Origin: an uncultured Bdellovibrionales bacterium
Lineage (GTDB): Bacteria > Patescibacteriota > Minisyncoccia > Moranbacterales > GWC2-37-73
Direction: 5' to 3'
NCBI GenBank assembly: GCA_964484505.1
Contig: CAZAFB010000002.1
Span: 9,679-73,678 of the forward strand
Length of the DNA stretch: 64,000 nucleotides
The position numbers were made by a program, and so were the translations under genes. Below the pieces are notes generated by a model. That model had not been told where the DNA came from and did no database searches. It saw nothing but the letters and a program-made list of their open reading frames with translations. Below are positions 14,497 to 62,908 of the stretch, piece after piece. Numbering within the stretch: the first letter of the stretch is position 1; each line of letters opens with the position of its first letter.

Positions 14497-14542
14497 ACGA
14501 TTTTCTTTTTTCTGCTTAACAAATTTCTTATTTACTAAAATT

Positions 14543-39684: not shown

Positions 39685-39707
39685 TTTTTTTATTAAAATT
39701 ATTTTAG

Positions 39708-41346: not shown

Positions 41347-41652
41347 ATGGAAAACATTAGTCAGGAAAAAATAATTGAAAATCTAAAAAGATGCTCGCAT
41401 TTTGAAAGATGCTCGCAAAATCTTTGCCCGCTTGATTTAGAGCTTTCACTGCGGGTTGGGGCTACACGAGATGAATGCCGTTATATGCGAAGACCTAGGC
41501 AGGTAAAAATTGGCGGTAAGGAATTTGTATCAGGAGGCACTGTTGCTCCAGATGCTGTCCTAAATTTTACGCCTAGCGAGAACTTAGACCGCCTAAACGA
41601 GTCGTCAAAAAAGAGATGGGAAGAACTTAATAAATTAAAGCCAAAAAAATGA
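41347..41652 (+). CDS. Hypothetical Cys-containing small protein (island cargo)
   Basis: 101-aa ORF with CSHFERCSQNLC. Its stop overlaps the start of the next ORF (atga at 41649-41652). Confidence 0.4.
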   Translation: MENISQEKIIENLKRCSHFERCSQNLCPLDLELSLRVGATRDECRYMRRPRQVKIGGKEFVSGGTVAPDAVLNFTPSENLDRLNESSKKRWEELNKLKPKK

Positions 41653-41981
41653 AAATAAACTTCACCGAACTGGAAGTCAGAATTAAAAAGGTTGCCGACA
41701 AAGCCAAGCACCCGAATCTTCTAGCCTATGTAACCGTTATTTTAAGAAATGATACGGGCGACTACCTTTCAATCACTGGCTTCACTGTATGGAAGAGCAA
41801 GTTTGAAAATGGCGGGCTAAATGTTGAAGAGCCAGGCAAACGAGGGTTTAAATATGTTTTATCTGAAAAATCATTCGAGGAAAAATTGAAAAGAGAAATC
41901 TTGGCAAAATATGAATATGCAGAAATTCCAATAGTGGGAGAAAGCCCAAATGATGAAATAAACATTGATGAAATTTTCTGA
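41649..41981 (+). CDS. Hypothetical protein (island cargo), translationally coupled to 41347..41652
   Basis: 110-aa ORF with a 4-nt overlap with the upstream gene. Confidence 0.4.
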   Translation: MKINFTELEVRIKKVADKAKHPNLLAYVTVILRNDTGDYLSITGFTVWKSKFENGGLNVEEPGKRGFKYVLSEKSFEEKLKREILAKYEYAEIPIVGESPNDEINIDEIF

Positions 41982-42102
41982 TTCGTTCGCTTACATTCCC
42001 TATAGTTTATTACTAGATATAATCTATAGTCTTATTTCCCTCTAAATGTAAGAGAAATAAACTAAATTGCTAAACTGAAACTAGAACTACTAAGCAGTTA
42101 TT

Positions 42103-43728
42103 ATGAGCAAAAGAATATCGGACGAGAAAATTAAATACTTTGCCTACATCCGTAAAAGTAGCGATAGGGACGATGCACAGACTTTGAGCTTAAAAGCCCA
42201 AAGACGAGAATTGAAAAGTTTTGCGGAAAAACACAATCTGAAAATCGTGGCTACTTTTGAGGAGTCCGCATCTGCTTATAAAATAGGTCGTCCCCAATTC
42301 AACAAGATGCTTGCGGAAATCGAGAAAGGCAAAGCTAACGCTATCCTGGTTTATCACCTTACCCGTATTGCCAGAAACAGCTTTGATGGTGGCAGGGTAA
42401 TTTATATGATGGACGAGGGGCTTATCAAAGAAATCAAGACACCCGAAAAGGCGTATTGTGCCAGTATTGGAGATGACAAATTTATAATGCAAATTCATTT
42501 CGCTATGGCGAAAAAATCTTCGGACGACACCAGCCAATTCGTGAAACGAGACATTCAAAGCAAAATTCTCAAAGGCGAATACCCAGTTTCCGCACCCATC
42601 GGATATTTGAATTTAGACGAGTTCGGAAGAATAGCTGGAAAGCGTTTTGATAATAAAAAACAAGAGCTAATAGAAAATTGCATCAAGACGGAAAAAAGGA
42701 AACCAAAAAGAATCGAGCAAGACCCGATTTTAGCTCCGATAATCAAAGAACTATTTCAACTTTACGCCAGTGAAAAACATTCGCTGGACAACTTGCGATA
42801 TAAATCACTGGAATTGGGAATCAAGGGGGTTAGAAACGACAATCAACTCACGAAATCGACTCTGGTCAGAATGTTAACAAATCCTATTTATTACGGGGCT
42901 ATACCTTGGAAAGGCGAAATTCACGAGCCAGAACAACTCCCAGAAGAAAGCAGGCATATTCCGATTATTGATAAGAAACTTTTTTCAGAAGTTCAATCTA
43001 TACTCAACAATAAATCCAGACCACGAGGGCAAGTCCATAATTTCGAATACACGGGACTTATGCGATGCGGTGAATGTGGGTCAATGATAACCGCCGAAAC
43101 CAAAAAGGGCTTCATTTATTACCGATGCACGAAGAAACGAGGCATCTGTTCCCAAAAATACCTTCGAGAAGATGAGCTTGAAAAACAACTCCACAACAAT
43201 ATGCTCGAATACATTATCCCCCAGGAATTTGCACAATGGGCTTTGGAAGTTCTAAACACCAATAATGCCAATGAGGACAGGAAAAGGAAAGCTATCTTGC
43301 TTCAACAAAGAAACCAGCTCACACACATTGAGCAACAACTTGGAAACCTCCTCAAGCTTAAAATTTCGCCCAGCAATATGAACGGCGAGCTTATTTCAGA
43401 CGAAGAGTATATAGACCAGAAGAGCGTATTGCTGTCCGAAAAAAAGACCATAAACGAAAAACTTTCTGATATTGAGCAGAATATGGAAAATTGGCTCGAA
43501 CAATGCGAGCAATTCTTTGATTTGGCTGTAAATTGCGAAAAAAAGTGGAATCAGAACAATCCTGGCAACAGAAAAGGAGTTTTTGCTTTTATGTTCGGCT
43601 CGAACAGCCTTTTAATAGACCAAAAAGTCCTATTTAAAGCCAAAAAGCCGTTATTTAAAACAGCTCTTTTAGCTAAATCGTCTAATTGGCGGGAGCGACG
43701 GGACTCGAACCCGCGACCTACTGCGTGA
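42103..43728 (+). CDS. Large serine recombinase (resolvase-type N-terminal catalytic domain, recombinase domain, zinc-ribbon, coiled coil)
   Basis: N-terminal YIRKSS...DAQTLSLKAQ...LVYHLTRIARN (catalytic Ser / resolvase fold). Central recombinase region, CGECGSMITAE...YYRCTKK zinc ribbon and a C-terminal coiled coil. The last 14 codons overlap tRNA-Asp on the opposite strand. Confidence 0.8.
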   Translation: MSKRISDEKIKYFAYIRKSSDRDDAQTLSLKAQRRELKSFAEKHNLKIVATFEESASAYKIGRPQFNKMLAEIEKGKANAILVYHLTRIARNSFDGGRVIYMMDEGLIKEIKTPEKAYCASIGDDKFIMQIHFAMAKKSSDDTSQFVKRDIQSKILKGEYPVSAPIGYLNLDEFGRIAGKRFDNKKQELIENCIKTEKRKPKRIEQDPILAPIIKELFQLYASEKHSLDNLRYKSLELGIKGVRNDNQLTKSTLVRMLTNPIYYGAIPWKGEIHEPEQLPEESRHIPIIDKKLFSEVQSILNNKSRPRGQVHNFEYTGLMRCGECGSMITAETKKGFIYYRCTKKRGICSQKYLREDELEKQLHNNMLEYIIPQEFAQWALEVLNTNNANEDRKRKAILLQQRNQLTHIEQQLGNLLKLKISPSNMNGELISDEEYIDQKSVLLSEKKTINEKLSDIEQNMENWLEQCEQFFDLAVNCEKKWNQNNPGNRKGVFAFMFGSNSLLIDQKVLFKAKKPLFKTALLAKSSNWRERRDSNPRPTA

Positions 43729-43762
43729 CAGGCAGTCGCTCTAACCAGCTGAGCTACGCCCC
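43687..43762 (-). tRNA. tRNA-Asp (anticodon GTC)
   Basis: Reverse complement gives GGGGCGTAGCTCAGCTGGTTAGAGCGACTGCCTGTCACGCAGTAGGTCGCGGGTTCGAGTCCCGTCGCTCCCGCCA. Cloverleaf has anticodon stem ACTGC/GCAGT, loop CTGTCAC, a T-arm GGTTCGAGTCC and an encoded CCA. Confidence 0.85.
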
Positions 43763-43786
43763 CATCATTAACCCCTCACACCTTTG

Positions 43787-43860
43787 TACCAGGGGAGAGA
43801 TTCGAACTCTCGACCCCAGGCTTATGAGTCCTGTGCTCTAACCAACTGAGCTACCCTGGC
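43787..43860 (-). tRNA. tRNA with CAT anticodon (elongator Met, or Ile2/lysidine type)
   Basis: Reverse complement gives GCCAGGGTAGCTCAGTTGGTTAGAGCACAGGACTCATAAGCCTGGGGTCGAGAGTTCGAATCTCTCCCCTGGTA. Anticodon loop CTCATAA, T-arm GAGAGTTCGAATCTCTC, G1-U72 wobble and no encoded CCA. Confidence 0.75.
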
Positions 43861-43893
43861 TCAAAAATGCGAAGGGGTAATTTTTAACTTTGT

Positions 43894-43966
43894 TGCGGGG
43901 GGCGGATTCGAACCGCCGACCTCGTGGTTATGAGCCACGCGAGCTGCCAGACTGCTCCACCCCGCT
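43894..43966 (-). tRNA. Initiator-like tRNA-fMet (CAT)
   Basis: Reverse complement gives AGCGGGGTGGAGCAGTCTGGCAGCTCGCGTGGCTCATAACCACGAGGTCGGCGGTTCGAATCCGCCCCCCGCAA. It closely resembles the E. coli initiator tRNA (CGCGGGGTGGAGCAGCCTGGTAGCTCG.CGGGCTCATAACCCGAAGGTCGTCGGTTCAAATCCGGCCCCCGCAACCA), including the mismatched 1-72 pair. Confidence 0.75.
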
Positions 43967-49104: not shown

Positions 49105-49659
49105 TTAAGTTGGCAATTTGGTCCAATTTCTCAGAGAAACTGTCGATTGCACAGCCATTAATCCAGCATCCTGAACATCAACCAGGGATGATATCGTAAC
49201 CCTTCCGGCACTCGATGCAGTCGGCAAAAGAACCCTGAAATTTACATATCCTCCCGATCCCATATTTTCCACTAAAGTGCTTGTTGGCGTCACACTTTCA
49301 TTCTTGCAGTCATTAATACTAGTTGATGCGCCAACGCCCATTTTTAGTGCTCCGCTAACATAACTATAAACAATGCAGGCACTGGTACTTTGCGAATGAT
49401 CGTACACCTTCAACTGTTGAGTATCTCCTGAAGTAGCCATGTTGACAACCGTACTTGTCCTGATAACTTTAGTCATGATATTCATGGCCTCATTGGATTG
49501 CTCCAGCGCTTTTTGTTGAGCCCTCACCACTCGAAAAGTCTTGAAAAAACTGGCAAAAGTTCCTGAAATCATGGTCATAGCCAAAGTGAACACAAAAAGA
49601 GAAACCAACACCTCTATCAGGGTAAAACCTTTTAATATTTTTGTTTTTTTATGATTCAT
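49105..49659 (-). CDS. Minor (pseudo)pilin with prepilin N-terminal cleavage/methylation motif
   Basis: KGFTLIEVLVSLFVFTLAMTMISG matches the type IV prepilin leader/GFTLIE motif. Confidence 0.6.
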   Translation of the reverse strand: MNHKKTKILKGFTLIEVLVSLFVFTLAMTMISGTFASFFKTFRVVRAQQKALEQSNEAMNIMTKVIRTSTVVNMATSGDTQQLKVYDHSQSTSACIVYSYVSGALKMGVGASTSINDCKNESVTPTSTLVENMGSGGYVNFRVLLPTASSAGRVTISSLVDVQDAGLMAVQSTVSLRNWTKLPT

Positions 49660-49688
49660 TGAAATAATTTAACTGTTCTTCGTTATTT

Positions 49689-50276
49689 TTATTTCTCAAT
49701 AATGGTTTTGTATGCGACACATTTTTTGGCCAAAGAGCAATCAGACTCAGGTGGATAAGAACCATTCCAGCTTACAACACTTATTACCACTTTTTTGTCG
49801 GAACTTCCTTCATCAGTTATTGAAATCCTGCGACTGAATTTTGTGGCAATTCCAGTTGAAGAACTACCATAGAAACCGGTTGCCTGATTTAAATACAAAG
49901 CATATGGACCACCGCTGCTGGTGCCCTTATTACAAAAGCTTGCGGATGAAGTGCCCCAGGAATCAAGATCGCTATCAGCAAATATCACACACTGATCGCT
50001 CCCGGAAACTTCTTCCAGGTGCAAAAATTGGTCCGATGCGCTAGAAGCTATATTATTGTCCCTAATAAAACGTACCAGTTCCGTACCTTCTTGGGCAAGT
50101 TGAGAGGCAACTATCTGGTCACGACTAAGCATGGTTGTCTTAAGATTATTGGACATCAGAGACAGGACTCCTAGCAAACCGATCAATATAACGAAAATTG
50201 AAATAACCACCTCCAACATGGAGAAGGCTTTTTTATTCCCTATTTTTTTTATTTTTTTGATAATTTTATTTTTCAT
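49689..50276 (-). CDS. Minor (pseudo)pilin with prepilin-type N-terminus
   Basis: KKAFSMLEVVISIFVILIGLLGVLSL is an (A/G)F(S/T)(L/M)(L/I)E prepilin motif followed by a hydrophobic helix. Confidence 0.55.
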   Translation of the reverse strand: MKNKIIKKIKKIGNKKAFSMLEVVISIFVILIGLLGVLSLMSNNLKTTMLSRDQIVASQLAQEGTELVRFIRDNNIASSASDQFLHLEEVSGSDQCVIFADSDLDSWGTSSASFCNKGTSSGGPYALYLNQATGFYGSSSTGIATKFSRRISITDEGSSDKKVVISVVSWNGSYPPESDCSLAKKCVAYKTIIEK

Positions 50277-50285
50277 ATAGAAATA

Positions 50286-50843
50286 TTAAGGGCAAGTTGC
50301 ATTACCCTCTAGTTCTACAATATTTCCCGTGCTGGAATTTATGCACAAAGTCCATTTTTTGCTATTATCAGAAGTGGATTGAAGTACTATTTTCCCACCA
50401 CCGGTTATTGAAGCTCTGGGAGCATTAAAAGAAATGGCTTGCGTGTCTGTTGCTCCACTATCATAATTTACACCACTTATCTCGCCCGACAAATCATAGC
50501 TTCCCGTAGCACCGGAACACGTACCACTATTGGACAATGTATATTGGGAATTATACGAAAGCTTTCCCGAAGCATTTACTATATTAATGGTAAAGCGACA
50601 TGCAATCTGATCATTACTCGGTCCAACCATTTTGCCGGCAAGAGAATCGTTTTGAACCTGTCTAACCAAGGCGGCAAGCTGGCGGGCAGCGACCTCCACG
50701 GTCTTTTGCGGCTTTACTCCTTGAAGACTAACGATAGTTGCAGCAGTCATTATTCCTATGATTGCCATAACCACAATCAATTCAACCAGGCTGAATCCTT
50801 GCTTATTTAATAAATATGTTTTTTGTTTTTTTATATTTTGCAT
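50286..50843 (-). CDS. Minor (pseudo)pilin (FimT/GspH-like) with prepilin N-terminus
   Basis: KQGFSLVELIVVMAIIGIMTAATIVSL. Confidence 0.6.
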   Translation of the reverse strand: MQNIKKQKTYLLNKQGFSLVELIVVMAIIGIMTAATIVSLQGVKPQKTVEVAARQLAALVRQVQNDSLAGKMVGPSNDQIACRFTINIVNASGKLSYNSQYTLSNSGTCSGATGSYDLSGEISGVNYDSGATDTQAISFNAPRASITGGGKIVLQSTSDNSKKWTLCINSSTGNIVELEGNATCP

Positions 50844-50940
50844 ATATTTGCGAATAATTCACATGCTTCCAAAAATTCGCGCTTATTTATTGGCGACAAT
50901 TCGCATGTATTTAAAATTTGCATCTATTCGCATCCTAATT

Positions 50941-51738
50941 TTACATCAAAAACAAGAAATTTTCAAATTGAGGAAACATTTGCGGCAGCATAATTGCAAG
51001 CAACATACCCACGACAAGAAACGGCGCGAACGGCACTTGGCTCTTCACTGTTTTTCTACGTAAAAAAACCAGGATCATACTTACTACAGCTCCTACTGTA
51101 AATGAAAAAAGCAATGCCAATAATATGCCCGGCCAACCCATGATCAAACCTGCCAAAAGACCAAGATAAGCGTCTCCCATGCCCATCCAGGTTTCTTTCG
51201 AGGCAGCTGCCAAAACAAAGAAAAAAAGAAAGGCCACGATACCCGCAATCAGACTTGAAATTAAATTAAGTGAAAGCAAGCTATCTGCCGTGCCGAATTG
51301 ATTCCAATCAGCAATCAGAGAATACACAACAGCTACAGCTACGCCAGCCCAAAGAATAATCATTGGTATTTCCATATACTTAAGGTCGTAAATGAAAATA
51401 ATAATCAACAGCGAAAATTCAGCCATTAAATAAAGCGTGGTAAGCCAAGAAAACATATCAGCTTGAACAAAGAAATATGACCCGATCATAGCAAAAACAA
51501 TCCCCGTCATCAATTCAACAGCGGGATATTGCCAAGAAATCTTCTCTCCGCAATCACGACATCTGGCACTCAGCACGATGAAGCTAAGCAGCGGAACGTT
51601 GTCAAACCAACGAATCTTTTTCTTACAATGTGGGCAATGCGACCGCTCCCAAAGCGACTCGACAGCATCAAGGCGATATACAACGGCATTTAAGAAGCTG
51701 CCGATAATCAGACCTAGGATGAAGAAAATTATAAACAT
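50941..51738 (-). CDS. pilD: Prepilin peptidase (A24 family)
   Basis: N-terminal GLIIGSFLNAVVYRL, Cys-tetrad region CPHCKKKIRWFDNVPLLSFIVLSARCRDCGEKISWQYP and multiple TM helices. Confidence 0.8.
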   Translation of the reverse strand: MFIIFFILGLIIGSFLNAVVYRLDAVESLWERSHCPHCKKKIRWFDNVPLLSFIVLSARCRDCGEKISWQYPAVELMTGIVFAMIGSYFFVQADMFSWLTTLYLMAEFSLLIIIFIYDLKYMEIPMIILWAGVAVAVVYSLIADWNQFGTADSLLSLNLISSLIAGIVAFLFFFVLAAASKETWMGMGDAYLGLLAGLIMGWPGILLALLFSFTVGAVVSMILVFLRRKTVKSQVPFAPFLVVGMLLAIMLPQMFPQFENFLFLM

Positions 51739-51845
51739 AGAAAATTTATTGCCATATTCTTTATGCCACTATTGTACAACAGAAAATAAAAATAAACCAG
51801 CCAGAGACAATCTCTGGCTGGTTTTAATCAACTAAATATAGGTTT

Positions 51846-52253
51846 CTAACAACCTGTAAATATTACGCCTGCCTGAGTAAACGTTACACCTGTGCAAGTA
51901 CCAGCTGGCCAACCTGCAGTGACGGTAATATCAAATGTTCCCGCTCCATTTGGTCCACAATCGTCATTATTAGGAGCAGTTTCCGAAATAGCTATGCCTG
52001 TAGTATTCGGGTTTGGCAATGGAATGTCTCCAGAAATATCCGTAGTTCCATCCAAAGCACCGTCACAAGCTATGATTGCACCTGCTTGCATTGAAGAGAT
52101 CTGCGACTTGAAATTAGCAACCTGCGCTTTTGTTCGCGCGTTGCTCAAACTGACAAGCACCACGGATGCCAAGATACCGATGATCGCAATAACGATCAAG
52201 AGTTCGATAAGCGTAAAGCCTCTTTTTGTTTTTCTCATTATGTTCCTCGGCAT
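51846..52253 (-). CDS. pilA: Type IV major pilin (PilA-like), copy 1 (probable start at [12 protein letters not shown], 52238)
   Basis: [56 protein letters not shown]: prepilin leader and conserved alpha-1 helix. Confidence 0.75.
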
Positions 52254-52387
52254 TCATTCTTTACCTTTTAAAATAAAACAAGTATGCCGATTTTTAAAAT
52301 TATTAAACCAAATAAATAGGAAAGACCAACAAAATCAAAGATTTCATATGTCTGCCAAAATAAATCAGCAGACAAGAAAATCTTCGA

Positions 52388-52807
52388 TTAACATCCCGTG
52401 AAAGTCACACCTGTTTCAGTATATGTGGTAGCTGTACAAGCTGCAGGCCTGCCTCCTGTAATGGAAACACTAAACGTTCCAGCTCCAGTGGGTCCGCAAC
52501 TTGAAGCGGTAACATTTACAGTAATGCCGGATCCAGCAGGAGTAGGCACATCTGCGTTGGCAATATTGATTCCCGGAGCACCATCACAAGCGATAATCGT
52601 ACCCGCTTGCATCGAAGAAACTTGCGATTTGAAATTAGCAACAGTTGCTTTTGATCGCGCATTGCTCAAACTGACGAGAACTACTGACGCCAAAATACCG
52701 ATGATCGCGATAACGATCAAAAGTTCAATCAAAGTAAAGCCTCTTTTTTGTGTCTTCTTCATAAAAAACACCTCCTTTCTTTTTTGGAAAAGCGTTTTCA
52801 AAAGCAT
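52388..52807 (-). CDS. pilA: Type IV major pilin (PilA-like), copy 2 (probable start at [13 protein letters not shown], 52762)
   Basis: [56 protein letters not shown] is nearly identical to copy 1 in the N-terminal 55 residues. The C-terminal globular part diverges. Confidence 0.75.
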
Positions 52808-52984
52808 GATACCCTATCTTTTCTTGCATTATGCCTTCGGGGTCGCTTTCCGCTTGTTTATATTTTATATCCTTTATCAACTCTACACAACAACCTTATC
52901 CACACAACATCGGTACCGTCAATAATTCACATGTTTCTCTATTCGCATCCATTCACCTTTATCATTCGTGAAAATTCGCATATG

Positions 52985-54196
52985 CTATTTTATTTGCCCT
53001 GCTATATTGTATATCGGCATAAGGATTGTGAAAACCAATATTGCCACACCGATACCAAGAATCACAATCAAAATCGGTTCAATCAAGGTTGTCATGTTAC
53101 GCGTCATGCGATCAGTTTCCCTTTCATAAAACTCGGCAACGTTTTTGAGCACCTCTTGAATTTTTCCCGAATCCTCACCGATTTTGATCATGCGTGGAAT
53201 AATCGGCGGAAACTCCCGGGAGCGAGCGAAGACCAAACTCATCGCACCACCCGTCTTTACCTCATCAGCAGCGCGCAAAATTACTGACTTATACACATCA
53301 TTGTTCACCACATCCGCCACAATAATCAAGGCTCGCACAACTGGAATACCTCCCGTTAGGAGAACAGCGAGATTTTCAGCGAAGCGCACCATATATAAAT
53401 CGCGAAAAAGAGCCCCAAATACGGGGATTTTTAACTTCCACTGATCCCATTCCCGCTTACCAGAGTCTGTTTTTATATAATACATTACCCCTAAAACAGC
53501 TCCGATAATCAATATAACAATCAACCACCAATAATGTCTGGCAAAATTACTGGAAGATATAATCATTTTAGTATACCAAGGCAATTCTATTTCCATATCA
53601 GCAAAAATGGCGGTAAGTTTTGGGATTACAATGGTAAAAACAATAAAACCGATAATCACGGCTGCAGTCAGAATAAATCCGGGATAAAAAAGCGCGCTTT
53701 TTATTTTATTGGTTAGTTCATAGTTTTTCTCGGTATTTTCCGCAAGAAATGCCAATGATTTCTGGAGATTTCCGGAAACTTCTCCAGCACGCACCATGCT
53801 TACCATCAACTGAGTGAAAACTGTCGGATGCTTTGATAAACTATCGGAAAGCGACATACCATCTTTTACATCAAGCACTATCTCATCTATCACCAACTTG
53901 AAATATTTGTTTTCCGTCTGTTCACCTATGGTCTGCAAAGATGTGACTACAGGCACCTTGGCATCGATAAGAGTGGCAAATTGCCTGAGAAAAACGGCCA
54001 ATTCTCTTTGACTAGCACCCTCCCAGATTCTTTTTATATCCTTTATGACATCAGAGTTCTTTTTTTCCTCTTCAATGGAAAGCGGGATCAAGCCGTTACT
54101 TTGAAGGATTTGTGCCACAGCCTCGCGACTCATGGCTTCGACACTGCCTTCTCGAACTTCCCCCGTGGAACCCTTGGCTTTGAATAAAAATTTCAT
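52985..54196 (-). CDS. pilC: Type IV pilus inner-membrane platform protein PilC (GspF family)
   Basis: 403 aa with two T2SS-F-type domains and three TM segments. It lies between pilT and pilA, as is typical. Confidence 0.8.
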   Translation of the reverse strand: MKFLFKAKGSTGEVREGSVEAMSREAVAQILQSNGLIPLSIEEEKKNSDVIKDIKRIWEGASQRELAVFLRQFATLIDAKVPVVTSLQTIGEQTENKYFKLVIDEIVLDVKDGMSLSDSLSKHPTVFTQLMVSMVRAGEVSGNLQKSLAFLAENTEKNYELTNKIKSALFYPGFILTAAVIIGFIVFTIVIPKLTAIFADMEIELPWYTKMIISSSNFARHYWWLIVILIIGAVLGVMYYIKTDSGKREWDQWKLKIPVFGALFRDLYMVRFAENLAVLLTGGIPVVRALIIVADVVNNDVYKSVILRAADEVKTGGAMSLVFARSREFPPIIPRMIKIGEDSGKIQEVLKNVAEFYERETDRMTRNMTTLIEPILIVILGIGVAILVFTILMPIYNIAGQIK

Positions 54197-54289
54197 AAAA
54201 CTCGCGAATGCGGAGCCAATGACAACGAATTAAAGCAAATATTCGCACCCATTAGCCTTTATTCGCTCTTTATTAGCGAGTTACTTGTT

Positions 54290-55369
54290 TTACTTTTTTG
54301 AAATAAGCATCTGTAAATATTCCCTATTCTTTGCATACACGAAAGCATCATCAGCCGTAATTGTGCCGCGCATAACCAAATCAGCCAGAGCCTTATCCAG
54401 AGATATCATGCCTTCACGCATACTCGTTTCGATAACCGAATCTATTTGATATGACTTGTTTTCACGGATAAGATTCTCCACGGCATGATTCTTGATCATA
54501 ATTTCCATTGCCGGAACACGTCCACCGCCAACCTTGGGAACCAAGCGTTGAGAAACAACGCCAACCAAAACGCTTGCCAGCTGGGAGCGGATTTGGTTTT
54601 GTTGATGAGCAGGGAAAACATCAATGATACGATCGATGGTCTGGGTCGTATCATTCGTGTGCAGAGTTCCCAAAATCAAATGCCCCGTTTCAGCAGCCGT
54701 CATGGCAGTACCGATGGTGTCCAAATCACGCATTTCACCAATAAGCACCACATTGGCATCTTCGCGAAAGACCGCACGTAAGCCCTCTTTGAAAGACTTT
54801 GTATCCCTTCCCACTTCGCGCTGATTGATGATACATCGATCTTGTTCGTAGATATATTCAATCGGATCCTCGATTGTGATAACATGTTTGTCCTGCGAGT
54901 GATTGATAAAATCAATCATCGCCGCAAGCGTAGTGGATTTTCCGTGACCAACCGGTCCGGTAACCAAAAGCAAACCTTGGGTAAGATGCATGAAATCATA
55001 AAGCATCGGCGATATATTCAATTCCTCCAGAGTTCTGATCTTGCCGGAAATTTGACGCATCGTAACACTAATATTGCCTTTTTGAAAAAAAATGTTGGTA
55101 CGAAAGCGAGCCTTATCTTCAAAATTGTATGAGAAATCAACCTGCCCTTCGTCAAGCAGTTTCTTTTTATTATCTTCGCTCAAGATGGCATCGGAAAGAT
55201 TTTTAGTATCTTCCGCAGTAAGCATGCTCTCTTGGGTAATCGGATAAAGTTTTCCGTCTAAACGCAAAGTAGGATACCTGCTTACAACCAGATGAAGATC
55301 GGAAGCGCCCTGCTGACACACTATTCTCAGCAGATTTTTCATGCGCTGTTCATTGTGCAATGTATCCAT
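54290..55369 (-). CDS. pilT: Twitching-motility/retraction ATPase PilT
   Basis: LLVTGPVGHGKSTTLAAMIDFIN (Walker A), VVLIGEMRDLDTI, ETGHLILGTLHTNDTTQTIDRIID, and a length of about 359 aa. Confidence 0.85.
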   Translation of the reverse strand: MDTLHNEQRMKNLLRIVCQQGASDLHLVVSRYPTLRLDGKLYPITQESMLTAEDTKNLSDAILSEDNKKKLLDEGQVDFSYNFEDKARFRTNIFFQKGNISVTMRQISGKIRTLEELNISPMLYDFMHLTQGLLLVTGPVGHGKSTTLAAMIDFINHSQDKHVITIEDPIEYIYEQDRCIINQREVGRDTKSFKEGLRAVFREDANVVLIGEMRDLDTIGTAMTAAETGHLILGTLHTNDTTQTIDRIIDVFPAHQQNQIRSQLASVLVGVVSQRLVPKVGGGRVPAMEIMIKNHAVENLIRENKSYQIDSVIETSMREGMISLDKALADLVMRGTITADDAFVYAKNREYLQMLISKK

Positions 55370-55429
55370 AATTTATTTTTTATTTTTTATCGTTTTTTTT
55401 GTTTTATTGATATTCGTATTGAACAAACT

Positions 55430-55813
55430 TTAGCATACACTGATAGCAGCCCTGATCTTTTCCACAACTTCCGAGGGAGTAAAGTGTGATTTAATAATGT
55501 AATCATTTACTCCCCGTTCCAAAATCTCATTAACACGATCTTTTTCGGAAAGGTTGGTCAACATTATTATTTTGAGATTTTTCCACTCTTCTTTTTTCTG
55601 AATTTTTTCCAGTACCTCGATTCCATCCATATATGGCATGACCATGTCCAACAAAACCAGATCCGGCAAATCTTCTTCGAGATATTTAATCGCTTCCACA
55701 CCGTTAGTTGCACAAGTAACATCAAATCCTTCTTGCTTCAATTTGAGATTATAAATATCCTGCACAAAAACATCGTCCTCAACCAACAATATTTTTTTCT
55801 TATTTGCTTCCAT
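55430..55813 (-). CDS. Stand-alone response-regulator receiver domain (CheY-like) embedded between pilB and pilT
   Basis: KKILLVEDDVFVQDIYNLKLKQEGFDVTCATNGVEAIKYLEEDLPDLVLLDMVMPYMDGIEVLEKI, with the conserved DD...D...K pattern. There is no output domain. Confidence 0.75.
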   Translation of the reverse strand: MEANKKKILLVEDDVFVQDIYNLKLKQEGFDVTCATNGVEAIKYLEEDLPDLVLLDMVMPYMDGIEVLEKIQKKEEWKNLKIIMLTNLSEKDRVNEILERGVNDYIIKSHFTPSEVVEKIRAAISVC

Positions 55814-56011
55814 ATTATTGTTATTTATAAAATGAGAACCCGTCTTTTCAGAACTTACGCGTTTGAATTTTTAAAATTTCAGCAAATATTGTTTTTTGCG
55901 CACTGCCGGCCGACCCGAGAGGGAAAGGCAAGCAAAAAATATATATTTGCTTGAAATTTATGCAAATGCTTAACTCCTATTATTATAAAATAGAGGCGCG
56001 TCTATTGCAAA

Positions 56012-57724
56012 TCAACCACGATCATCGTCAACATCGCCACCGATACTAAGACTTCCCTCAGTCACTCTTTCCACTTCCGCAAAAGTGGTAAGACCTTTTA
56101 AAACCTTCAACATACCATCTTGTTTCATGGTTACCATTTTAGTGCTTTCTGCATATTTTTTAACAAATACTTCTTCGCCATGATGCTCTGAAATTATTTC
56201 CTTCAATTCAGCATTCACTTCAAGAACTTCAAAAATAGCAACACGCCCCTTATATCCGGTCTTTGCACATGCTTCACATCCTTTTCCTTGATATATTCTT
56301 ATGCCTTCATTGATATCAACCCCATATTTAGCCAACTCTTCAGAATCAATCCTGGAGAGTTCGTTTTTAATGAATTCTTTGATAGCATTAGAAACTTCCA
56401 CTTCTTCTTTACATTCTTGACATATACGCCTAACCAAACGCTGAGCTGCTACCGCTTGCAATGAAGATGAAAGAAGGAATGGTTCTATACCCATATCGAT
56501 CAAGCGCGGAATAGCTCCTATTGAGGTGTTGGTGTGTAATGTGGAAAAAACAAGATGTCCCGTAAGGGCGGCGTGTATGGAAAGCTCCGCGGTCTCCGTA
56601 TCTCTAATTTCACCCACCATTATTACATTCGGATCTTGACGAAGAATGGAGCGCAAACCACTGGCAAAAGTATATCCGATTTCCGGTTTGATCTGACTCT
56701 GGTTTACTCCTTCCACGGAATATTCAACAGGATCTTCCAAGGTCACAATGTTTCGCTCTTCCTTATTGAGAATTTGCAAGAAAGAATAAAGAGTTGTTGA
56801 TTTCCCGCTCCCAGTAGGTCCGGTTATCAGAATTATGCCATAAGGCTCTCTTATTCTTTTTAATAATATATCCCTGTTACTTGCAATAAGCCCCAGTGTT
56901 TCCACATCAATCATTTTATCACCCTTGTCCAGAAGTCGCAGCACTGCCTTTTCCCCCTCCACCACGGGCAAAGTCGAAACGCGAAAATCTACAGGCTTGC
57001 CGTTTTCCACCACCCTGAAACGACCATCCTGAGGTTTTCTTTTCTCATCTATTTTTAAATTGGAAATTATCTTAATACGGGAAACCACCGCTCGACCAAC
57101 TTCCTTGGGAACAGCAAACGATGAATGTAAAACACCGTCAACCCGAAAACGTATTCGATATTCCTTATCCATGGGCTCAATATGAATATCGCTGGCTTTA
57201 CCTTCAATTGCATGCTTAATTACAACACTAAGCAGTTTGGTGATTGGAGCATCCTGAATAGCCTCCTTTTTTTCTACTGTCTGATCTTTTTCAAAAATAT
57301 CGCCAAAATCATCGCCTTGCAATGATTGCATGGCTTCCTGAATAGCCTTTTCCGTATTGGAATATTGCCCCAAAACCCCCTGAAAAACTTCTTCACCGAT
57401 AAGATAAACTTCGAATTCTATTTTTGCGTTTTCCGCGATGAATCTCAAAATATTCATGGCACCCAAGTCATCCGGGTTGACGATTCCCAATTTCACGACA
57501 TTGCCTTTTTTTTCCAATGGCACCATCTTGTGTCTCTTGGCTATATCTTCAGAAATTATATCCAAAACAGCCTTGGGAACTTTCGGCGCTTCCAAAATCA
57601 AAGGAAGGCGATATTTATCCGCCTTTTCCTGCAGTTCCTTATTGGGAGTATCTTTTGCTTCATCTTGCAAGCTGGCAGCAGAGATAATCCCATTATCCTT
57701 TTTTGCGTCTTTCTTCCCCTTCAT
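56012..57724 (-). CDS. pilB: Type IV pilus assembly (extension) ATPase PilB (GspE family)
   Basis: N-terminal GSPII_E_N-like region, Walker A ILITGPTGSGKSTTLYS, the Asp box, TGHLVFSTLHTN and the Cys tetrad CxxC...CxxC near the C-terminus. Confidence 0.85.
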   Translation of the reverse strand: MKGKKDAKKDNGIISAASLQDEAKDTPNKELQEKADKYRLPLILEAPKVPKAVLDIISEDIAKRHKMVPLEKKGNVVKLGIVNPDDLGAMNILRFIAENAKIEFEVYLIGEEVFQGVLGQYSNTEKAIQEAMQSLQGDDFGDIFEKDQTVEKKEAIQDAPITKLLSVVIKHAIEGKASDIHIEPMDKEYRIRFRVDGVLHSSFAVPKEVGRAVVSRIKIISNLKIDEKRKPQDGRFRVVENGKPVDFRVSTLPVVEGEKAVLRLLDKGDKMIDVETLGLIASNRDILLKRIREPYGIILITGPTGSGKSTTLYSFLQILNKEERNIVTLEDPVEYSVEGVNQSQIKPEIGYTFASGLRSILRQDPNVIMVGEIRDTETAELSIHAALTGHLVFSTLHTNTSIGAIPRLIDMGIEPFLLSSSLQAVAAQRLVRRICQECKEEVEVSNAIKEFIKNELSRIDSEELAKYGVDINEGIRIYQGKGCEACAKTGYKGRVAIFEVLEVNAELKEIISEHHGEEVFVKKYAESTKMVTMKQDGMLKVLKGLTTFAEVERVTEGSLSIGGDVDDDRG

Positions 57725-57735
57725 ATTTTACTATT

Positions 57736-58536
57736 TTATGGCAAAAAAGGATTCGCCTTTCCCGCGCCTGAAGCTTCCAAATTAGGCATAACCGTAGCAA
57801 CATTTTCTCTCAACTTATCGACAGTGGAAAAATCATATACCGATCTTAAGAACAAGGGATGGCTATAGCCATTACTGATATTAACCATAGGCAAACTTGC
57901 AAAATTAATAGCTATCTTAGCCTCCAATGTTTGTCCGGAAGCATCTTTTGCCGTTTCCGTGGAAATATGGGCCGCCTTTTGAGAAGTGCTGCCGGCACGT
58001 GAGATAACAACAGAATCAAGAGAGCTTAGCATTTCCATATTATGCAGATTACTCAAAAAAGTCATAATAGATTCATAGGAACCGGACAGTAAAATTGTAC
58101 CTTTTGTATAACTAACCACAGGCGTTTTAACTGTCGCCTCAAGTGAAGGGTCTGATAAGCCATCACCATTGCCTGAAACATCGGCAGCTACCCCTGCTGC
58201 AACAAGAGGTGTTTCTTCTTTAACATTCTCCAAATTAATGTTAAAGAGTATCAGTCCGTTGGAAAGATAATTGATTGAGTCAATAATCCTTTCCTCGGAT
58301 CTATTCTTAGGAACATATCTCTCCGCATAACTCACTCTGTCAACATTTTTTTCAATATCGCTAAGGAGACTTCCCGCATTGCGACTTTTTTGATTCATAT
58401 CAGCAAGCGTCGCTGCCAATTTATCTCCCTCCTTCCTGGCGACTTTTATTTCCTCCCACTGTGGAACGATGAAACTGAGCACTAAGGTGACGGAGACAAG
58501 TAACATTAACGGAAAAAATAGAAGTTTCAAGCGCAT
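57736..58536 (-). CDS. pilO: PilO-like pilus assembly protein (N-terminal TM plus coiled coil)
   Basis: TM (LLFFPLMLLVSVTLVLSFIV) then a coiled-coil / periplasmic domain. It sits between pilN-like and pilB. Confidence 0.45.
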   Translation of the reverse strand: MRLKLLFFPLMLLVSVTLVLSFIVPQWEEIKVARKEGDKLAATLADMNQKSRNAGSLLSDIEKNVDRVSYAERYVPKNRSEERIIDSINYLSNGLILFNINLENVKEETPLVAAGVAADVSGNGDGLSDPSLEATVKTPVVSYTKGTILLSGSYESIMTFLSNLHNMEMLSSLDSVVISRAGSTSQKAAHISTETAKDASGQTLEAKIAINFASLPMVNISNGYSHPLFLRSVYDFSTVDKLRENVATVMPNLEASGAGKANPFLP

Positions 58537-58592
58537 ATTTTTTGTTCGAGAAAACTTTTCTAATCAGAAAAGTCTGCTCTGTTTGTATTTAA

Positions 58593-59123
58593 TTATTTGT
58601 TTTTGAAATTACCGCTTATTTTAAAAATTATGCCCTTTTCTGTCCTTTTCATATCCTTCACAACCAAACTATCGATATTTCCGGAACTCTTGAAACTAAG
58701 GACCTGTTTAGCAATTGAAAGAAAATCATTGGCAATAAAATCTATCTCTAAAAGCTTGTTCTCATATGAAAAAGAATCGACATACACACCTGGCAACATA
58801 GAATTTTTGATTGCATCCATCATCTTATTGGCATCTTGCCTTGTTGTAAAATTTTCTTTGATAACATCCAGCCGTTGTTGCAAATCGACCATCCTGTTAA
58901 CCTTATCCTTGGAAAAACTTTGCTGCAGTTGAACTATCTGCTCGTTCATTTGCTCATTATTATGCACAGTCCTGTAATGGAAAAATTTAAAGCCGCCCCA
59001 AACCAGCAACGTCACCACCAAAACTCCTATGGAAATAAAGAAGCCTTTATCAGCGACAGCGTTCCTGTTGTCTGACTGGCTCAATTCATCCGTAGATGAC
59101 TGATGAAAATTAATCGATGTCAT
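58593..59123 (-). CDS. pilN: PilN-like pilus assembly protein
   Basis: Short cytoplasmic N-terminus, single TM (FFISIGVLVVTLLVWGGFKFF) and a coiled-coil periplasmic part. It is immediately downstream of pilM. Confidence 0.45.
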   Translation of the reverse strand: MTSINFHQSSTDELSQSDNRNAVADKGFFISIGVLVVTLLVWGGFKFFHYRTVHNNEQMNEQIVQLQQSFSKDKVNRMVDLQQRLDVIKENFTTRQDANKMMDAIKNSMLPGVYVDSFSYENKLLEIDFIANDFLSIAKQVLSFKSSGNIDSLVVKDMKRTEKGIIFKISGNFKNK

Positions 59124-59211
59124 ATTTTTTATTTTTTATTATATTTGTTATATTTATGAATTTTCTAGTTGTTTGCAGTCAAAAATTCGCACAAGCATGT
59201 TCACAAAAATT

Positions 59212-60309
59212 TCATTTTCTTTGATATTCTTCTACTCCGCGCAAAGCAAGTCCTACGGCAACGGTAAAAGCTGATCCCAACTTCTCCACATGAGGCAACA
59301 CTGACTCGTCACAAACAATTCTTCGCCAAGGATTACCTAGGGTTGATTTAATACCAAGAGCCTCAGCGAAATACTGCTCAGCCCCTTTCATATGCGCCGC
59401 CCCTCCTGAAAGTATCACTCCATCTATTTTAGCTTGCTGATTATTAGATTTATATGATCCAATCATCCTGTTCGCTTCATCCACAATCATGCCAATAACC
59501 GGCAACACAATTGTTGAATCTTTGGAATTAAGCAGGTCTTTTTCGCCTTTTTTGAATATTTCCGCACGAGACTTGGAAATATTCATACCCTCAGCTATCG
59601 CCTTTGTGATCTCACTGCTTCCAGCATCCATATTTCTGCTTATTCTCACGATACCTTTTTCCACCAGTATTATGTTGGTGGAACGAGCCCCCATGTCCAA
59701 AATAAGGAATGTGCCAGCATCATCGCCTACCAAAGCTCTGGCTATGGAAAAAGTTTCCAATTCTATAGCGCCTATTTCCAATCCTGCAGAATTTATCAAC
59801 CCTTCATATTTGGCAACTTCTTTTTTGGGCGCAGCAACAAGCAACACTTGTAACTTGTCAATCGTGTCTTTTTCATCATTTTTCAAGATAGAGTGATTGT
59901 TTTTCCCGACAACTTCCCAACTAAGAGCTATCTCCTCGACAGTCGCCGGTATATATTTATGCGCCTCAAACTGAATAGCACTCTCCAATTCCTCATTACT
60001 CATTTCCGGAAGCTCAATAAGAGTTATCAATCCGCTGAATCCTGGCAAAGCTACAAAAGATGGCGCCTCCTTCTTGACCCCAGTCTGCTGGCAAAGTTCT
60101 TTGAAACATTCTTTAAGTTTATCCTCGTAGGATTGAAGCTTCATTTCTTTGACATCTTCTACTTGCAAAACCGCATCAAGATCTATCCAACCATAATTGA
60201 TCAGATGAGGACGCTGTTCTTTATATGTTAGTTCGACGATTTTAATCGCAGAAGTGCCGAAATCCACACCAACAAAGTGATTTTTTTTACTTGAAAATAT
60301 ACCTAACAT
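59212..60309 (-). CDS. pilM: Type IV pilus assembly ATPase-fold protein PilM (actin-like)
   Basis: N-terminal VGVDFGTSAIKIVEL phosphate-1 motif of the actin/HSP70 fold. Internal GGAAHMKG and the length of 365 aa also fit. Confidence 0.8.
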   Translation of the reverse strand: MLGIFSSKKNHFVGVDFGTSAIKIVELTYKEQRPHLINYGWIDLDAVLQVEDVKEMKLQSYEDKLKECFKELCQQTGVKKEAPSFVALPGFSGLITLIELPEMSNEELESAIQFEAHKYIPATVEEIALSWEVVGKNNHSILKNDEKDTIDKLQVLLVAAPKKEVAKYEGLINSAGLEIGAIELETFSIARALVGDDAGTFLILDMGARSTNIILVEKGIVRISRNMDAGSSEITKAIAEGMNISKSRAEIFKKGEKDLLNSKDSTIVLPVIGMIVDEANRMIGSYKSNNQQAKIDGVILSGGAAHMKGAEQYFAEALGIKSTLGNPWRRIVCDESVLPHVEKLGSAFTVAVGLALRGVEEYQRK

Positions 60310-60497
60310 TTATTTTTGTCTTAACAGTATTTTTTATGAAAACCCTTTGTTAAAATTATACCACGACATCGATATGACCACAACCAACAGTAAGGAGCAA
60401 CTATTCTTCTTCAAAATCAACATTGACAGTCTGACTTATAAAAAACTAAACTAAATACGTGTTTTAAGCTTACTTTATTATACAACTTTTTGAACTC

Positions 60498-61301
60498 ATG
60501 TTAAAGCTCGCTATTTTTTCAGCTATGCACAGTTTTATTCTAGACACCCTTTTCCCTGTCCGTTGCATCTCCTGCCGCAAATATGGGGATTGGCTATGTG
60601 AAAAGTGCCTCAAAAACATCAAGCTTATCAGTGAGCACTCCTGTCCGCACTGCGAAAAAGTTTCCACTAACTCCGGCACTACTTGCCTTGATTGCCGTGA
60701 TAATTTCTCACTTGATGGCCTGGTTAGTGCCGCCTCTTATCATGATGACACCGTTTCCGAGGCGGTGCATTTTTTCAAATATCGTTTCGTTGAGGATTTA
60801 GCGACGCCACTTGCCGAGTTGATGGCACGATCTTATGTTGATTCCAATAATCCCCTTCCTGACATGATTGTGCCTGTACCACTTCATCCTCGCCGCCTGC
60901 GTTGGCGCGGTTTCAATCAAGCGGAACTACTGGCAAGAGAACTAAGCGCAAAACTAGCGCCGGGAATAAACATAGGGTTTGATAATAATTTAATTGTTCG
61001 CAAAAAATATACGCGACCACAGATGAAAATCAAAAAATATCGCGACCGCATCGCCAATATGCGCAACACGTTTTCCTCTGCGGATGATGTGTCGCTTGTA
61101 AATAAACATATTTTATTAGTAGATGACATTGCCACCACCGGAACCACGCTTTTGGAGTGTGCCAAAATCCTGAAAAAGCTCCATGCGCGCAAAGTAACAG
61201 CGCTCATCATCGCCCGCCAAGAGCTCAAAAAAGATAAGTTTAGGTTTAAGCTTAACACAGCCAAGAACCACCATACCCTTGCTTTTTTCGGCGAAAAGTG
61301 A
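60498..61301 (+). CDS. comF: Competence protein ComF (ComFC-type phosphoribosyltransferase with N-terminal zinc finger)
   Basis: N-terminal CISCRKYGDWLCEKC...CPHCEKVS...CLDC zinc-finger. The C-terminal PRTase motif is HILLVDDIATTGTTLLECAKIL. Confidence 0.8.
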   Translation: MLKLAIFSAMHSFILDTLFPVRCISCRKYGDWLCEKCLKNIKLISEHSCPHCEKVSTNSGTTCLDCRDNFSLDGLVSAASYHDDTVSEAVHFFKYRFVEDLATPLAELMARSYVDSNNPLPDMIVPVPLHPRRLRWRGFNQAELLARELSAKLAPGINIGFDNNLIVRKKYTRPQMKIKKYRDRIANMRNTFSSADDVSLVNKHILLVDDIATTGTTLLECAKILKKLHARKVTALIIARQELKKDKFRFKLNTAKNHHTLAFFGEK

Positions 61302-61364
61302 TATAATGTAAAACTGGTAAATTAACAAATTTTCATTAATCTTTCTTCCCAAAGGAGGTACGAC

Positions 61365-61700
61365 ATGGACTATGACCTGTTGCGTCACCTGGAGATTGAA
61401 ATTGAGAAAGCGGCCGGCAAAGCGGGGAAAAAAATTCCCTTCAATGCCATAAAGAAGAAAGTTATCAATTGTCACGCCAGAGAACTGGGGAATGAACTAC
61501 ATATATATGAAAAAGTAATCTCCTCGGACTTTGGCAAGAAAGGCGGCAGGGCTGCCGCCGAGAAAATATTAATTAAGCAATTCCTGCGTTCGACTCAAAT
61601 AGAAGAGAGTCATGAACAAGAATTGTTTGATATGATCCGCCACGGCGACGTGGAAATAACAGCCGACGGCGATACACTCCCCTTGTATAACGGGGAGTGA
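61365..61700 (+). CDS. Hypothetical small protein
   Basis: 111-aa ORF preceded by a strong Shine-Dalgarno (aaaggaggt) 7 nt upstream of ATG 61365. Confidence 0.5.
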   Translation: MDYDLLRHLEIEIEKAAGKAGKKIPFNAIKKKVINCHARELGNELHIYEKVISSDFGKKGGRAAAEKILIKQFLRSTQIEESHEQELFDMIRHGDVEITADGDTLPLYNGE

Positions 61701-61712
61701 AGGATAGAAAAC

Positions 61713-61744
61713 AAGGGTGTTTGCGTCAATACGCAAACACCCTT
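61713..61744. terminator. Bidirectional intrinsic terminator between convergent genes (13/14-bp perfect stem aagggtgtttgcgt / acgcaaacaccctt, loop caat)
   Basis: Perfect long inverted repeat with U-rich flanks on both transcripts. It lies between 61365..61700 (+) and the histidine kinase (-). Confidence 0.6.
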
Positions 61745-61759
61745 TTGCATTCAAAAATA

Positions 61760-62908
61760 TTATTCGATATTTTCGATATTAAGGCATGGGAGATATATTC
61801 TAAATTCCGTGCCCTCCCCTTCTTTGGAAGAGAAACGAAGATAACCACTATGCCTTTCCACGATTTTAATAGCTGTGGTTACTCCAATTCCTGTGCCCTC
61901 TTTTTTGGTTGTGAAATATTTTTCAAACAACCTCCTTTGGGTTTCTTCATTCATGCCGCAGCCAGTGTCAGAAATGCTAAGTCGGACGTATTTTCCCTTG
62001 GGGACTTCCGCACCGTCTTCATCCAGATCGAAATTTTCCGTGGAAATTACAATTTCCCTGATCTCGCTTTCTTCAACCGCTTGTTTGGCATTTGTAACAA
62101 TATTCAGCACAACGCTGGTTAACTCTCCATAGCTTCCCATGATAAAATAAACTGGCTGCAATTTTCTGCAAATCGAAATTCCCCTTCTGTGAGCATCATT
62201 CATACTCATAGCATAAATATCCTCAGCAATATCATTGATATCCAGAGGATTCATGGAATATCCTCCTTTTGCCATGCGAAGCAAGTTATTTGACAGTGCG
62301 CATACCTTTTCTACACCATTGACTATCATATGGGCAAAATGTTTGTCCTTCTCGGAAGCGTCAGGAGAAGCTTCCAACAGAGAAGCAAAACCCATTATGG
62401 ATGTCATGAAATTCCGGATATCGTGAATAATGCTATCCACTATCATTCCAAGAGAATCGGCGGTTTCCATTCGCATTAATCTTTCCTCAGCCTCAGCAGC
62501 TTCCTTTTCTCTCTTCTTTCTTTCAGAAATATCCCGCACAAACCCGATTGCACCCCAAGTACCGTCATCAAAAGGCAACTTTGATAAGGAAAGTTCGATA
62601 GGAAATTCCTCGCCGTTTTTGCGCAAACTCACCCATTCTGTGGTCTTATCAATAGTCATCCCCTGCCCGGTTTCTTGAAAATATCTAACCCCCTTATCAC
62701 AAGAAGCATGCAGTTCCGTAGTTGCGATAAGCTCGTGAATATCTTTACCCACAGCTTCCTCCGTTGAATATCCGAACATGTCCTCGGCACGCGGATTGAA
62801 ATATATTACCTTATTATCCTTGTCGGTAATAATGATGGCATCTGGTGCCATGTAAAAAATCTTTTCCAAAGCGATACCCAGATCAATCCCACCAAGTTTT
62901 TTTCGCAT
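61760..62908 (-). CDS. Sensor histidine kinase with N-terminal PAS domain (cytoplasmic, no TM)
   Basis: PAS (APDAIIITDKDNKVIYFNPRAEDMFGYSTEEAVGKDIHELI), HisKA (DSIIHDIRNFMTSIMGFASLL) and HATPase_c (SISDTGCGMNEE...GTGIGVTTAIKIVERHSGYL). Confidence 0.8.
   Translation of the reverse strand: MRKKLGGIDLGIALEKIFYMAPDAIIITDKDNKVIYFNPRAEDMFGYSTEEAVGKDIHELIATTELHASCDKGVRYFQETGQGMTIDKTTEWVSLRKNGEEFPIELSLSKLPFDDGTWGAIGFVRDISERKKREKEAAEAEERLMRMETADSLGMIVDSIIHDIRNFMTSIMGFASLLEASPDASEKDKHFAHMIVNGVEKVCALSNNLLRMAKGGYSMNPLDINDIAEDIYAMSMNDAHRRGISICRKLQPVYFIMGSYGELTSVVLNIVTNAKQAVEESEIREIVISTENFDLDEDGAEVPKGKYVRLSISDTGCGMNEETQRRLFEKYFTTKKEGTGIGVTTAIKIVERHSGYLRFSSKEGEGTEFRIYLPCLNIENIE

Follow-up and report, generated by a model that had tools for sequence, protein, structure and literature searches.

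Type IV pilus (T4P) loci have been reported previously in the Candidate Phyla Radiation (CPR), where they were linked to competence and host attachment (PMC6744442, Meheust et al. 2019; TM7x T4P-1, PMC12206443). In these CPR and Saccharibacteria loci, pilM, pilN, pilO, pilB, pilT, pilC, pilD and several pilin genes are co-localised, PilQ is absent, and the pil genes are listed without a receiver or regulator. The current study concerns a T4P cluster in a 64,000-nucleotide stretch of contig CAZAFB010000002.1 (assembly GCA_964484505.1), hereafter the window; the cluster has the same gene content, but a receiver-only response regulator (REC) splits the extension ATPase gene pilB from the retraction ATPase gene pilT. 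To our knowledge, nothing is known about how CPR cells control T4P. A T4P locus is itself already known for the CPR, and receiver-only control of T4P motors is also a known type of mechanism. What appears to be new is a dedicated receiver family with a signature of its own, which in many genomes of the Parcubacteria type occupies a fixed place between pilB and pilT and has no linked kinase. No description of this arrangement was found in the literature searched on CPR, Patescibacteria or Parcubacteria pili and response regulators, in which subscription journals were thinly covered, and a prior description is possible.

PilG and PilH of the Pil-Chp system in Pseudomonas and Xanthomonas (PMC7029496), to which the first-pass annotation of this DNA had likened the window receiver, exemplify how receiver-only proteins can favour either extension or retraction of T4P. 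The likeness holds as a functional analogy. However, PilG and PilH are encoded together with the CheA-type ChpA, the CheW-type PilI and the methyl-accepting chemotaxis protein (MCP) PilJ, away from pilB and pilT, whereas the window receiver sits between these two genes. No CheA, CheW or MCP domains were found among the scanned open reading frames (ORFs) of the window (Pfam scans covered most ORFs of at least 120 amino acids [aa] plus the locus genes, with shorter ORFs outside the scan; the 80 related loci described below were searched with the window's own proteins only). The best family and structure matches of the window receiver are of the RR468/PhoB/YycF type, not PilG/PilH.

The best mechanistic precedent comes from two Xanthomonas proteins that, like the window receiver, are orphans without an output domain. 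EmvR, a receiver-only protein with a single phospho-Asp, binds PilB, alters its ATPase activity and has the kinase ColS as a contact (PMC11973254); DrdR, which has tandem receivers, binds PilB and PilT and alters ATPase activity (PMC13507683). Both differ from the window family in being proteobacterial and in having genes unlinked to pil genes, and the likeness is one of analogy, without evidence of orthology. RR468 of Thermotoga maritima (PDB 3DGE and others) is likewise a stand-alone receiver and is the closest solved relative, but it was solved in complex with the kinase HK853, has no known pilus link, and carries K-P-F after beta5 where the window receiver carries K-S-H-F. PilS-PilR is a kinase/regulator pair encoded beside pilB-pilT-pilC; this arrangement was encountered in several loci selected by PilT (L104, L111, L113, L125 and L144), all without CPR-type comF-pilM synteny. 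PilR, which activates sigma-54-dependent transcription of pilA, has AAA+ and DNA-binding (HTH) domains, whereas the window protein is a receiver-only protein of 127 aa with no adjacent kinase.

Conservation of the pilB-receiver-pilT arrangement

The first-pass annotation had called for a comparison of synteny with other CPR T4P loci. For this comparison, genomes (one GTDB representative per species) were searched by the receiver family signature, and at least 385 relatives were found; the best 80 of these loci were analysed with 10-kb flanks, using only the window's own proteins as queries. pilB was located directly upstream of the receiver gene in 70 of 75 evaluable loci (4 further loci had one small pilin-like ORF between the two), and pilT was located directly downstream in 73 of 75. 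Median intergenic gaps were 32 nt for pilB-REC and 31 nt for REC-pilT. The wider gene order of the window also recurred, namely divergent comF, pilM, pilN, pilO, pilB, REC, pilT, pilC, pilins, pilD and minor pilins, followed further on by ligA, gatC and gatA. Of the 31 syntenic loci of full length, 30 contained pilM.

Two checks were blind to the receiver. Metagenome contigs were scanned with PilT as the seed, which yielded an arbitrary sample of PilT loci (45-55% identity); in 9 of them the receiver was found between pilB and pilT, its signature having loosened to K-x-x-x-T-P-[ST]-E-V-V, whereas others lacked it. comF-pilM synteny was present in the 3 of these loci that had enough flank (L090, L091 and L100). 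In the second check, the PilT of a locus without the receiver (L089) was followed to its named Parcubacteria/Pacebacteria relatives, and 3 of 3 carried a Response_reg gene between pilB and pilT. The insertion of the receiver is accordingly judged to be widespread in Parcubacteria-type lineages, with occasional loss.

Homologs with a named source came from Candidatus Moranbacteria/Moraniibacteriota, Parcubacteria, Paceibacterota and "Patescibacteria group" metagenome-assembled genomes (MAGs). These names support the assignment of the locus to Moranbacteria/Parcubacteria, in line with the CPR context that the first-pass annotation had inferred. Many "MAG TPA_asm" records (L006, L009, L011, L013, L033, L037 and others) are labelled as uncultured Bdellovibrionales, Micavibrio or Saccharibacteria, yet have Moranbacteria-type synteny, and their receivers are 50-62% identical to that of the window; such labels look unreliable and were not used for distribution.

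Receivers were also found beside pilB in other settings. A Sungiibacteriota contig (L069, 47-2195) has a canonical pilB-REC-pilT set and also a second pilB paralog, immediately upstream of which a second stand-alone receiver without the signature is encoded. In L140 (4526-5715), a 266-aa kinase (transmembrane segment, HisKA, HATPase) and a 125-aa receiver are encoded directly upstream of pilB, and in L130 (1344-4112) a multi-PAS kinase and a receiver are encoded upstream of pilB; neither receiver has the family signature. The gene neighbourhoods of L140 and L130 show that putative kinase-fed control of pilB-linked receivers exists in other lineages. In a further locus (L098, 2587-3501), the ORF between pilB and pilT encodes a 304-aa protein that is HDOD-like by eye only.

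Chemistry, fold and family of the receiver

The window receiver contains E12, D13 and D14, the phospho-acceptor D56, T86, the aromatic switch residue Y105, and K108. The absence of the phospho-acceptor Asp had been named beforehand as counting against the first-pass proposal; D56 is present, and in a 24-sequence family alignment it was invariant together with E12, D13, D14, K108 and the family-specific N87, while Y105 was nearly so and position 86 was Thr or Ser. By its residue set and fold, the receiver should be phosphorylatable, and its phosphorylation is predicted. An AlphaFold2 model (pLDDT 90.3) has the canonical (beta-alpha)5 fold in the order b1-a1...b5-a5. The best PDB match was RR468 (TM-score 0.90, rmsd 1.2 Å, profile E=3e-31, 38-39% identity), next came receivers of the PhoB/YycF/MtrA type, and Spo0F (TM-score 0.87) was also among the structural matches.

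The family has a signature after beta5, K-S-H-F-T-P-S-E-V, which was invariant in the 24-sequence alignment; K-S-H-F replaces the usual Lys-cisPro-Phe (K-P-F) of typical receivers. The signature broadens to K-[SA]-H-F-T-P-S-E-V and, in deeper lineages, to K-x-x-x-T-P-[ST]-E-V-V. Among 195 non-redundant members, the beta5-alpha5 loop (K108-T112) was the most conserved non-catalytic element (mean conservation 0.94), and residues P113, E115 and V116 of alpha5 were also highly conserved. In alpha1, residues F16, D19, I20, Y21 and K24 were invariant or almost so in the 24-sequence alignment. In receiver domains, alpha1 forms the kinase-docking face and alpha4-beta5-alpha5 the output face. The pattern suggests that the receiver may have a donor and a target that are each conserved.

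Among 5.8 billion proteins searched, at least 804 matched the receiver at E<=1e-10. The best 120 of these homologs were 55-88% identical to the window receiver; nearly all had a single domain and a length of about 125 aa (117-176), and every source-named homolog among them was from Patescibacteria. As judged by this range of identity over the best 120, the family is unusually tight for a receiver. The evolutionary rate of the receiver is about as low as that of PilB and lower than the rates of PilC, PilM and PilD, which counts in favour of the motor reading set out below.

Proposed control of the pilus motor and competing explanations

Given the strong conservation of the receiver's place between the two motor genes, control of pilus dynamics is the most economical reading. 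The first-pass annotation had suggested phospho-control from the placement of the receiver; the conserved position bears out the placement, and the mechanism itself is one that we infer. We regard it as fairly probable that the locus is a secretin-less CPR type IVa pilus operon in which an integral, vertically inherited receiver acts as a phospho-switch on the motor, the donor coming from outside the locus. The receiver would be phosphorylated on D56 by this outside phosphodonor and would then bind, by its highly conserved beta4-alpha4/beta5-alpha5 face, a component of the motor, namely PilB and/or PilT, or possibly PilM or PilC. Such binding would change how far extension prevails over retraction, and with this also attachment to the host cell and DNA uptake. 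A further-reaching form, which we put forward only tentatively, is that the receiver family is a dedicated motor switch and a core subunit of the pil operon in many Parcubacteria, replacing cyclic di-GMP- or Chp-type control and fed by a donor from outside the locus (an orphan kinase or acetyl phosphate).

Several observations weigh against a motor switch. The 80 loci were picked by the receiver signature, and their counts describe where the receiver occurs, not its frequency among T4P loci. Other PilT-selected loci lacked the receiver, and since these included the Parcubacteria-type pilB-pilT loci L088 and L089, the receiver is judged to be dispensable in some lineages. One receiver of the family (L078) lies in a non-pil context and another (L043) has no adjacent pilT; the latter stays beside pilB although pilT is missing from the locus, and this retention speaks for an action on the motor. 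The tie between the receiver and any Pil protein is likewise inferential. In a distance-matrix (mirror-tree) test of the receiver against PilB, PilT, PilC, PilM and PilD, with LigA as a control, in 17 complete loci, all Pil proteins correlated equally with the receiver (partial r 0.44-0.57), and no partner was singled out. Finally, no kinase was found within 10 kb in any of the 80 loci (phmmer with the PAS kinase of the window, E<1e-5), and because no kinase was linked to these loci, phosphorylation stays a prediction.

The PAS histidine kinase that served as query had been proposed by the first-pass annotation as the receiver's partner, encoded about 1.4 kb away in a cytoplasmic form. The gene is there: it ends 1.45 kb from the start of pilM and 5.9 kb from the receiver gene, and its product has no hydrophobic segment. 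In this explanation, the kinase would sense an intracellular cue and phosphorylate the receiver, which would tune PilB/PilT in this organism. The kinase is intact (PAS, H-box IIHDIRN and HATPase_c). Apart from it and the receiver, no two-component protein was detected in the 64 kb, the Pfam scans having revealed neither a further kinase nor a further receiver, and each of the two lacks an adjacent partner. CPR genomes are small, so alternative two-component partners may be few. In other lineages, as in L140 and L130, a kinase gene does adjoin a REC-pilB pair.

Conservation argues the other way. Relatives of the kinase consisted of an identical sequence, one at 71% and one at 44% (that is, three at 44% or above), followed by generic PAS kinases at 37% or less from other phyla, whereas receiver homologs hold 55-88% identity over at least 120 clusters. 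In the phmmer search, none of the ORFs of the 80 syntenic loci matched the kinase (0/80). In the closest relative (L081), whose receiver is 88% identical and whose PilT falls in the same 90% cluster as that of the window, the region upstream of pilM contains ribosomal protein genes and two ORFs of no known function, and neither comF nor the PAS kinase. The kinase gene is separated from the pil operon by comF and a 111-aa ORF, both on the plus strand, and with a strong predicted terminator of its own it is predicted to be a separate transcription unit. A comparison of the dimerization and histidine phosphotransfer (DHp) helix among the three kinase relatives revealed only partial conservation after the His and carried no weight either way. 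From the conservation of its alpha1 docking face, the receiver would be expected to have a donor that is itself conserved, and this kinase does not fit that description. Because it has few relatives, no match in the 80 loci, no counterpart beside pilM in L081 and a unit of its own, we conclude from these comparisons that the PAS kinase is a lineage-specific neighbour and not a conserved partner of the receiver family. By its proximity it could still be the receiver's donor in this one organism, which we consider rather unlikely. As a conserved cognate pair, the kinase and the receiver were rejected, the two genes being 5.9 kb apart and neither co-transcribed nor co-conserved.

Single-domain receivers often act as phosphate sinks or relay intermediates, and the receiver might accordingly be a Spo0F-like or CheY2-like protein that is merely co-expressed in the pil operon and has its output outside the pilus. 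The structural match to Spo0F and the family member outside a pil context (L078) fit this explanation, but the place between the motor genes is kept in about 93-97% of evaluable loci, with PilT down to about 45% identity, which is hard to fit with co-expression alone. No linked Hpt protein or kinase turned up in the 80 loci, which were searched with the window's own proteins only. We consider a sink or relay role very improbable. Slightly less probable still is a role without phosphorylation, in which the receiver would serve the motor as a structural adaptor or as a pseudo-receiver subunit, which would suit the lack of a linked kinase in the 80 loci and the K-S-H-F in place of the Lys-cisPro motif, but pseudo-receivers normally lose some of the phospho-chemistry residues, whereas D13, D14, D56 and K108 are invariant here and position 86 is Thr or Ser, and there is no known reason to keep the acidic pocket without phosphorylation or metal binding.

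Gene content, transcription signals and surroundings of the locus

An ORF map and domain scans reproduced the gene set and order of the first-pass annotation at the same coordinates (Table 1). The minus-strand run from 60309 down to 49105 consists of pilM, pilN-like and pilO-like genes, pilB, REC, pilT, pilC, two pilin genes, pilD and three minor pilin genes. PilC, PilM, PilD and the prepilins all reached Pfam gathering scores, with the exception of the minor pilin at 49689-50276. PilB scored 545 bits against TIGR02538 (cutoff 676) and 552 bits against TIGR02533, both under the equivalog cutoffs. The pilN-like and pilO-like proteins had no NCBIfam match, and their names are based on sub-threshold Pfam matches, bitopic topology and conserved position. 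A Secretin domain (PilQ) was not found among the scanned window ORFs. Because absence of PilQ is the reported norm in CPR (PMC6744442), this was not counted against a monoderm form of the T4P, and the combined data support a full monoderm-type, secretin-less type IVa pilus cluster.

Table 1. Features of the T4P locus and its flanks (positions in the window; terminators and the promoter-like site are predicted).
Feature	Coordinates	Strand	Evidence or remarks
Terminator	49084-49058	-	3' of last minor pilin
Minor pilin, last gene	49105..49659	-	N_methyl E=1.4e-5
Minor pilin, PilV-like N terminus	49689..50276	-	N_methyl E=6.4e-4, 19.6 bits (cutoff 21.2); TIGR02523 E=2.1e-10, under cutoff
Minor pilin, GspH/FimT-like N terminus	50286..50843	-	N_methyl E=1.2e-7; TIGR01708 E=4.5e-11, under cutoff
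pilD, prepilin peptidase	50941..51738	-	A24_N_bact 111 bits; Peptidase_A24 41 bits
Terminator, 14-bp stem	51824-51794	-	3' of pilin 2
Pilin 2, type IVa-like prepilin, 135 aa	51846..52253	-	N_methyl E=4e-10
Pilin 1, type IVa-like prepilin	52388..52807	-	N_methyl E=7.6e-10
pilC, platform protein	52985..54196	-	T2SSF 197 bits, 2 stretches
pilT, retraction ATPase	54290..55369	-	TIGR01420 443 bits (cutoff 319.1); AVENLIRE motif
REC-only response regulator, 127 aa	55430..55813	-	PF00072 92 bits
pilB-REC spacer, 198 nt	55814..56011	-	Promoter-like TTTGCA-18-TATAAT at 56011-55982, just behind the pilB stop codon
pilB, extension ATPase, GspE/PilB family	56012..57724	-	T2SSE 445 bits; MshEN-type N domain E=9.5e-10; CxxC...CxxC (tetracysteine) motif
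pilO-like bitopic membrane protein	57736..58536	-	PF04350 E=6.5e-3, under cutoff; N-terminal transmembrane segment, residues 1-28; position conserved
pilN-like bitopic membrane protein	58593..59123	-	PF05137 E=6e-4, under cutoff; one transmembrane segment, residues 22-48; position conserved
pilM, actin-like cytoplasmic platform protein, first gene of pil operon	59212..60309	-	PF11104 PilM_2 148 bits; FtsA domain
comF, ComFC-type	60498..61301	+	DZR_2 double zinc ribbon and Pribosyltran (phosphoribosyltransferase) fold; TIGR00201 E=1.7e-32, under cutoff
Terminator	61744-61713	-	3' of PAS kinase
Soluble PAS-HisKA-HATPase_c histidine kinase	61760..62908	-	Pfam; no hydrophobic/transmembrane segment; H-box IIHDIRN

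Consensus scans predicted strong terminators behind pilin 2, behind the last minor pilin and behind the PAS kinase. The pilB-REC spacer carries about 110 nt inserted relative to L081 and is longer than the median spacer elsewhere (32 nt). Because the promoter-like hexamers at its 5' end are common to the window and L081, they suggest an internal promoter, here predicted, that would drive REC-pilT-pilC. In an Rfam scan of the window, three tRNAs were the only matches, with no regulatory RNA within the pilus locus. Pilin 2 was found to be broken into ORFs of 47 and 81 aa on JGI contig Ga0248167_1000297 (L084, 13557-13968), which carries an identical receiver; this points to probable strain-level variation or decay of one pilin. 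L081 (GCA_964500125.1) has, at 14054-16339 between pilin 2 and pilD, an opposite-strand gene for a 761-aa PMT_2 glycosyltransferase that the window lacks and that may have a role in pilin glycosylation.

As noted in the first-pass annotation, comF is divergent from pilM; the spacer is 188 bp. A divergent comF upstream of pilM was found in 34 of 56 evaluable loci, adjacent in 19 and farther upstream in 15. In each of six of these 15 loci that were inspected, comF and pilM were separated by a single large ORF (about 825-865 aa) on the minus strand. This ORF, in a comF-pilM gap of 2.6 kb, is ClpB/ClpC-like by eye only and had no match to the PAS kinase query. The recurrence of comF agrees with the earlier suggestion of a link to DNA uptake and is consistent with what has been proposed for CPR (PMC6744442). 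The term "competence locus" was overstated, because comF is the sole competence gene present; no ComEC- or ComEA-type domains were found in the scanned ORFs of the 64 kb. Between comF and the PAS kinase, a 111-aa ORF without a Pfam match (61365-61700, plus strand) has a homolog that adjoins comF in L007 (Parcubacteria GW2011_GWD2_38_11), and it may be a conserved companion of comF.

Elsewhere in the window, three giant minus-strand ORFs (1629-14330, 4233 aa; 15204-20540, 1778 aa; 27397-34950, 2517 aa) encode Laminin_G_3/ConA-like lectin repeats, DUF2341, a bacterial TSP3 repeat, 14 RCC1 repeats and Fn3-type repeats. By these domains they look like typical CPR-style giant surface proteins, possibly with a part in host interaction. 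A low-GC island at 38000-43966 (GC content 0.335-0.341 versus about 0.41) contains unannotated small ORFs, and genes for tRNA-Asp, tRNA-Met and tRNA-Met (43687-43966) directly adjoin a plus-strand gene for a large serine recombinase (42103-43728); the island is probably an integrated mobile element.

T4P are the best-supported means of host attachment and DNA uptake in CPR/Patescibacteria, and a receiver encoded between the extension and retraction motors is a concrete candidate control point in tiny, regulator-poor cells. A tempting but unsupported pairing of the PAS kinase with the receiver has been removed from the annotation. The signature motif can be used as a marker to trace the system in metagenomes, and the receiver is a defined protein with which PilB/PilT binding and phosphorylation of D56 can be tested. 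If the receiver family is indeed a dedicated motor switch fed from outside the locus, it would couple the extension and retraction of pili, attachment to the host and DNA scavenging to the metabolic state of cells that depend on a host.

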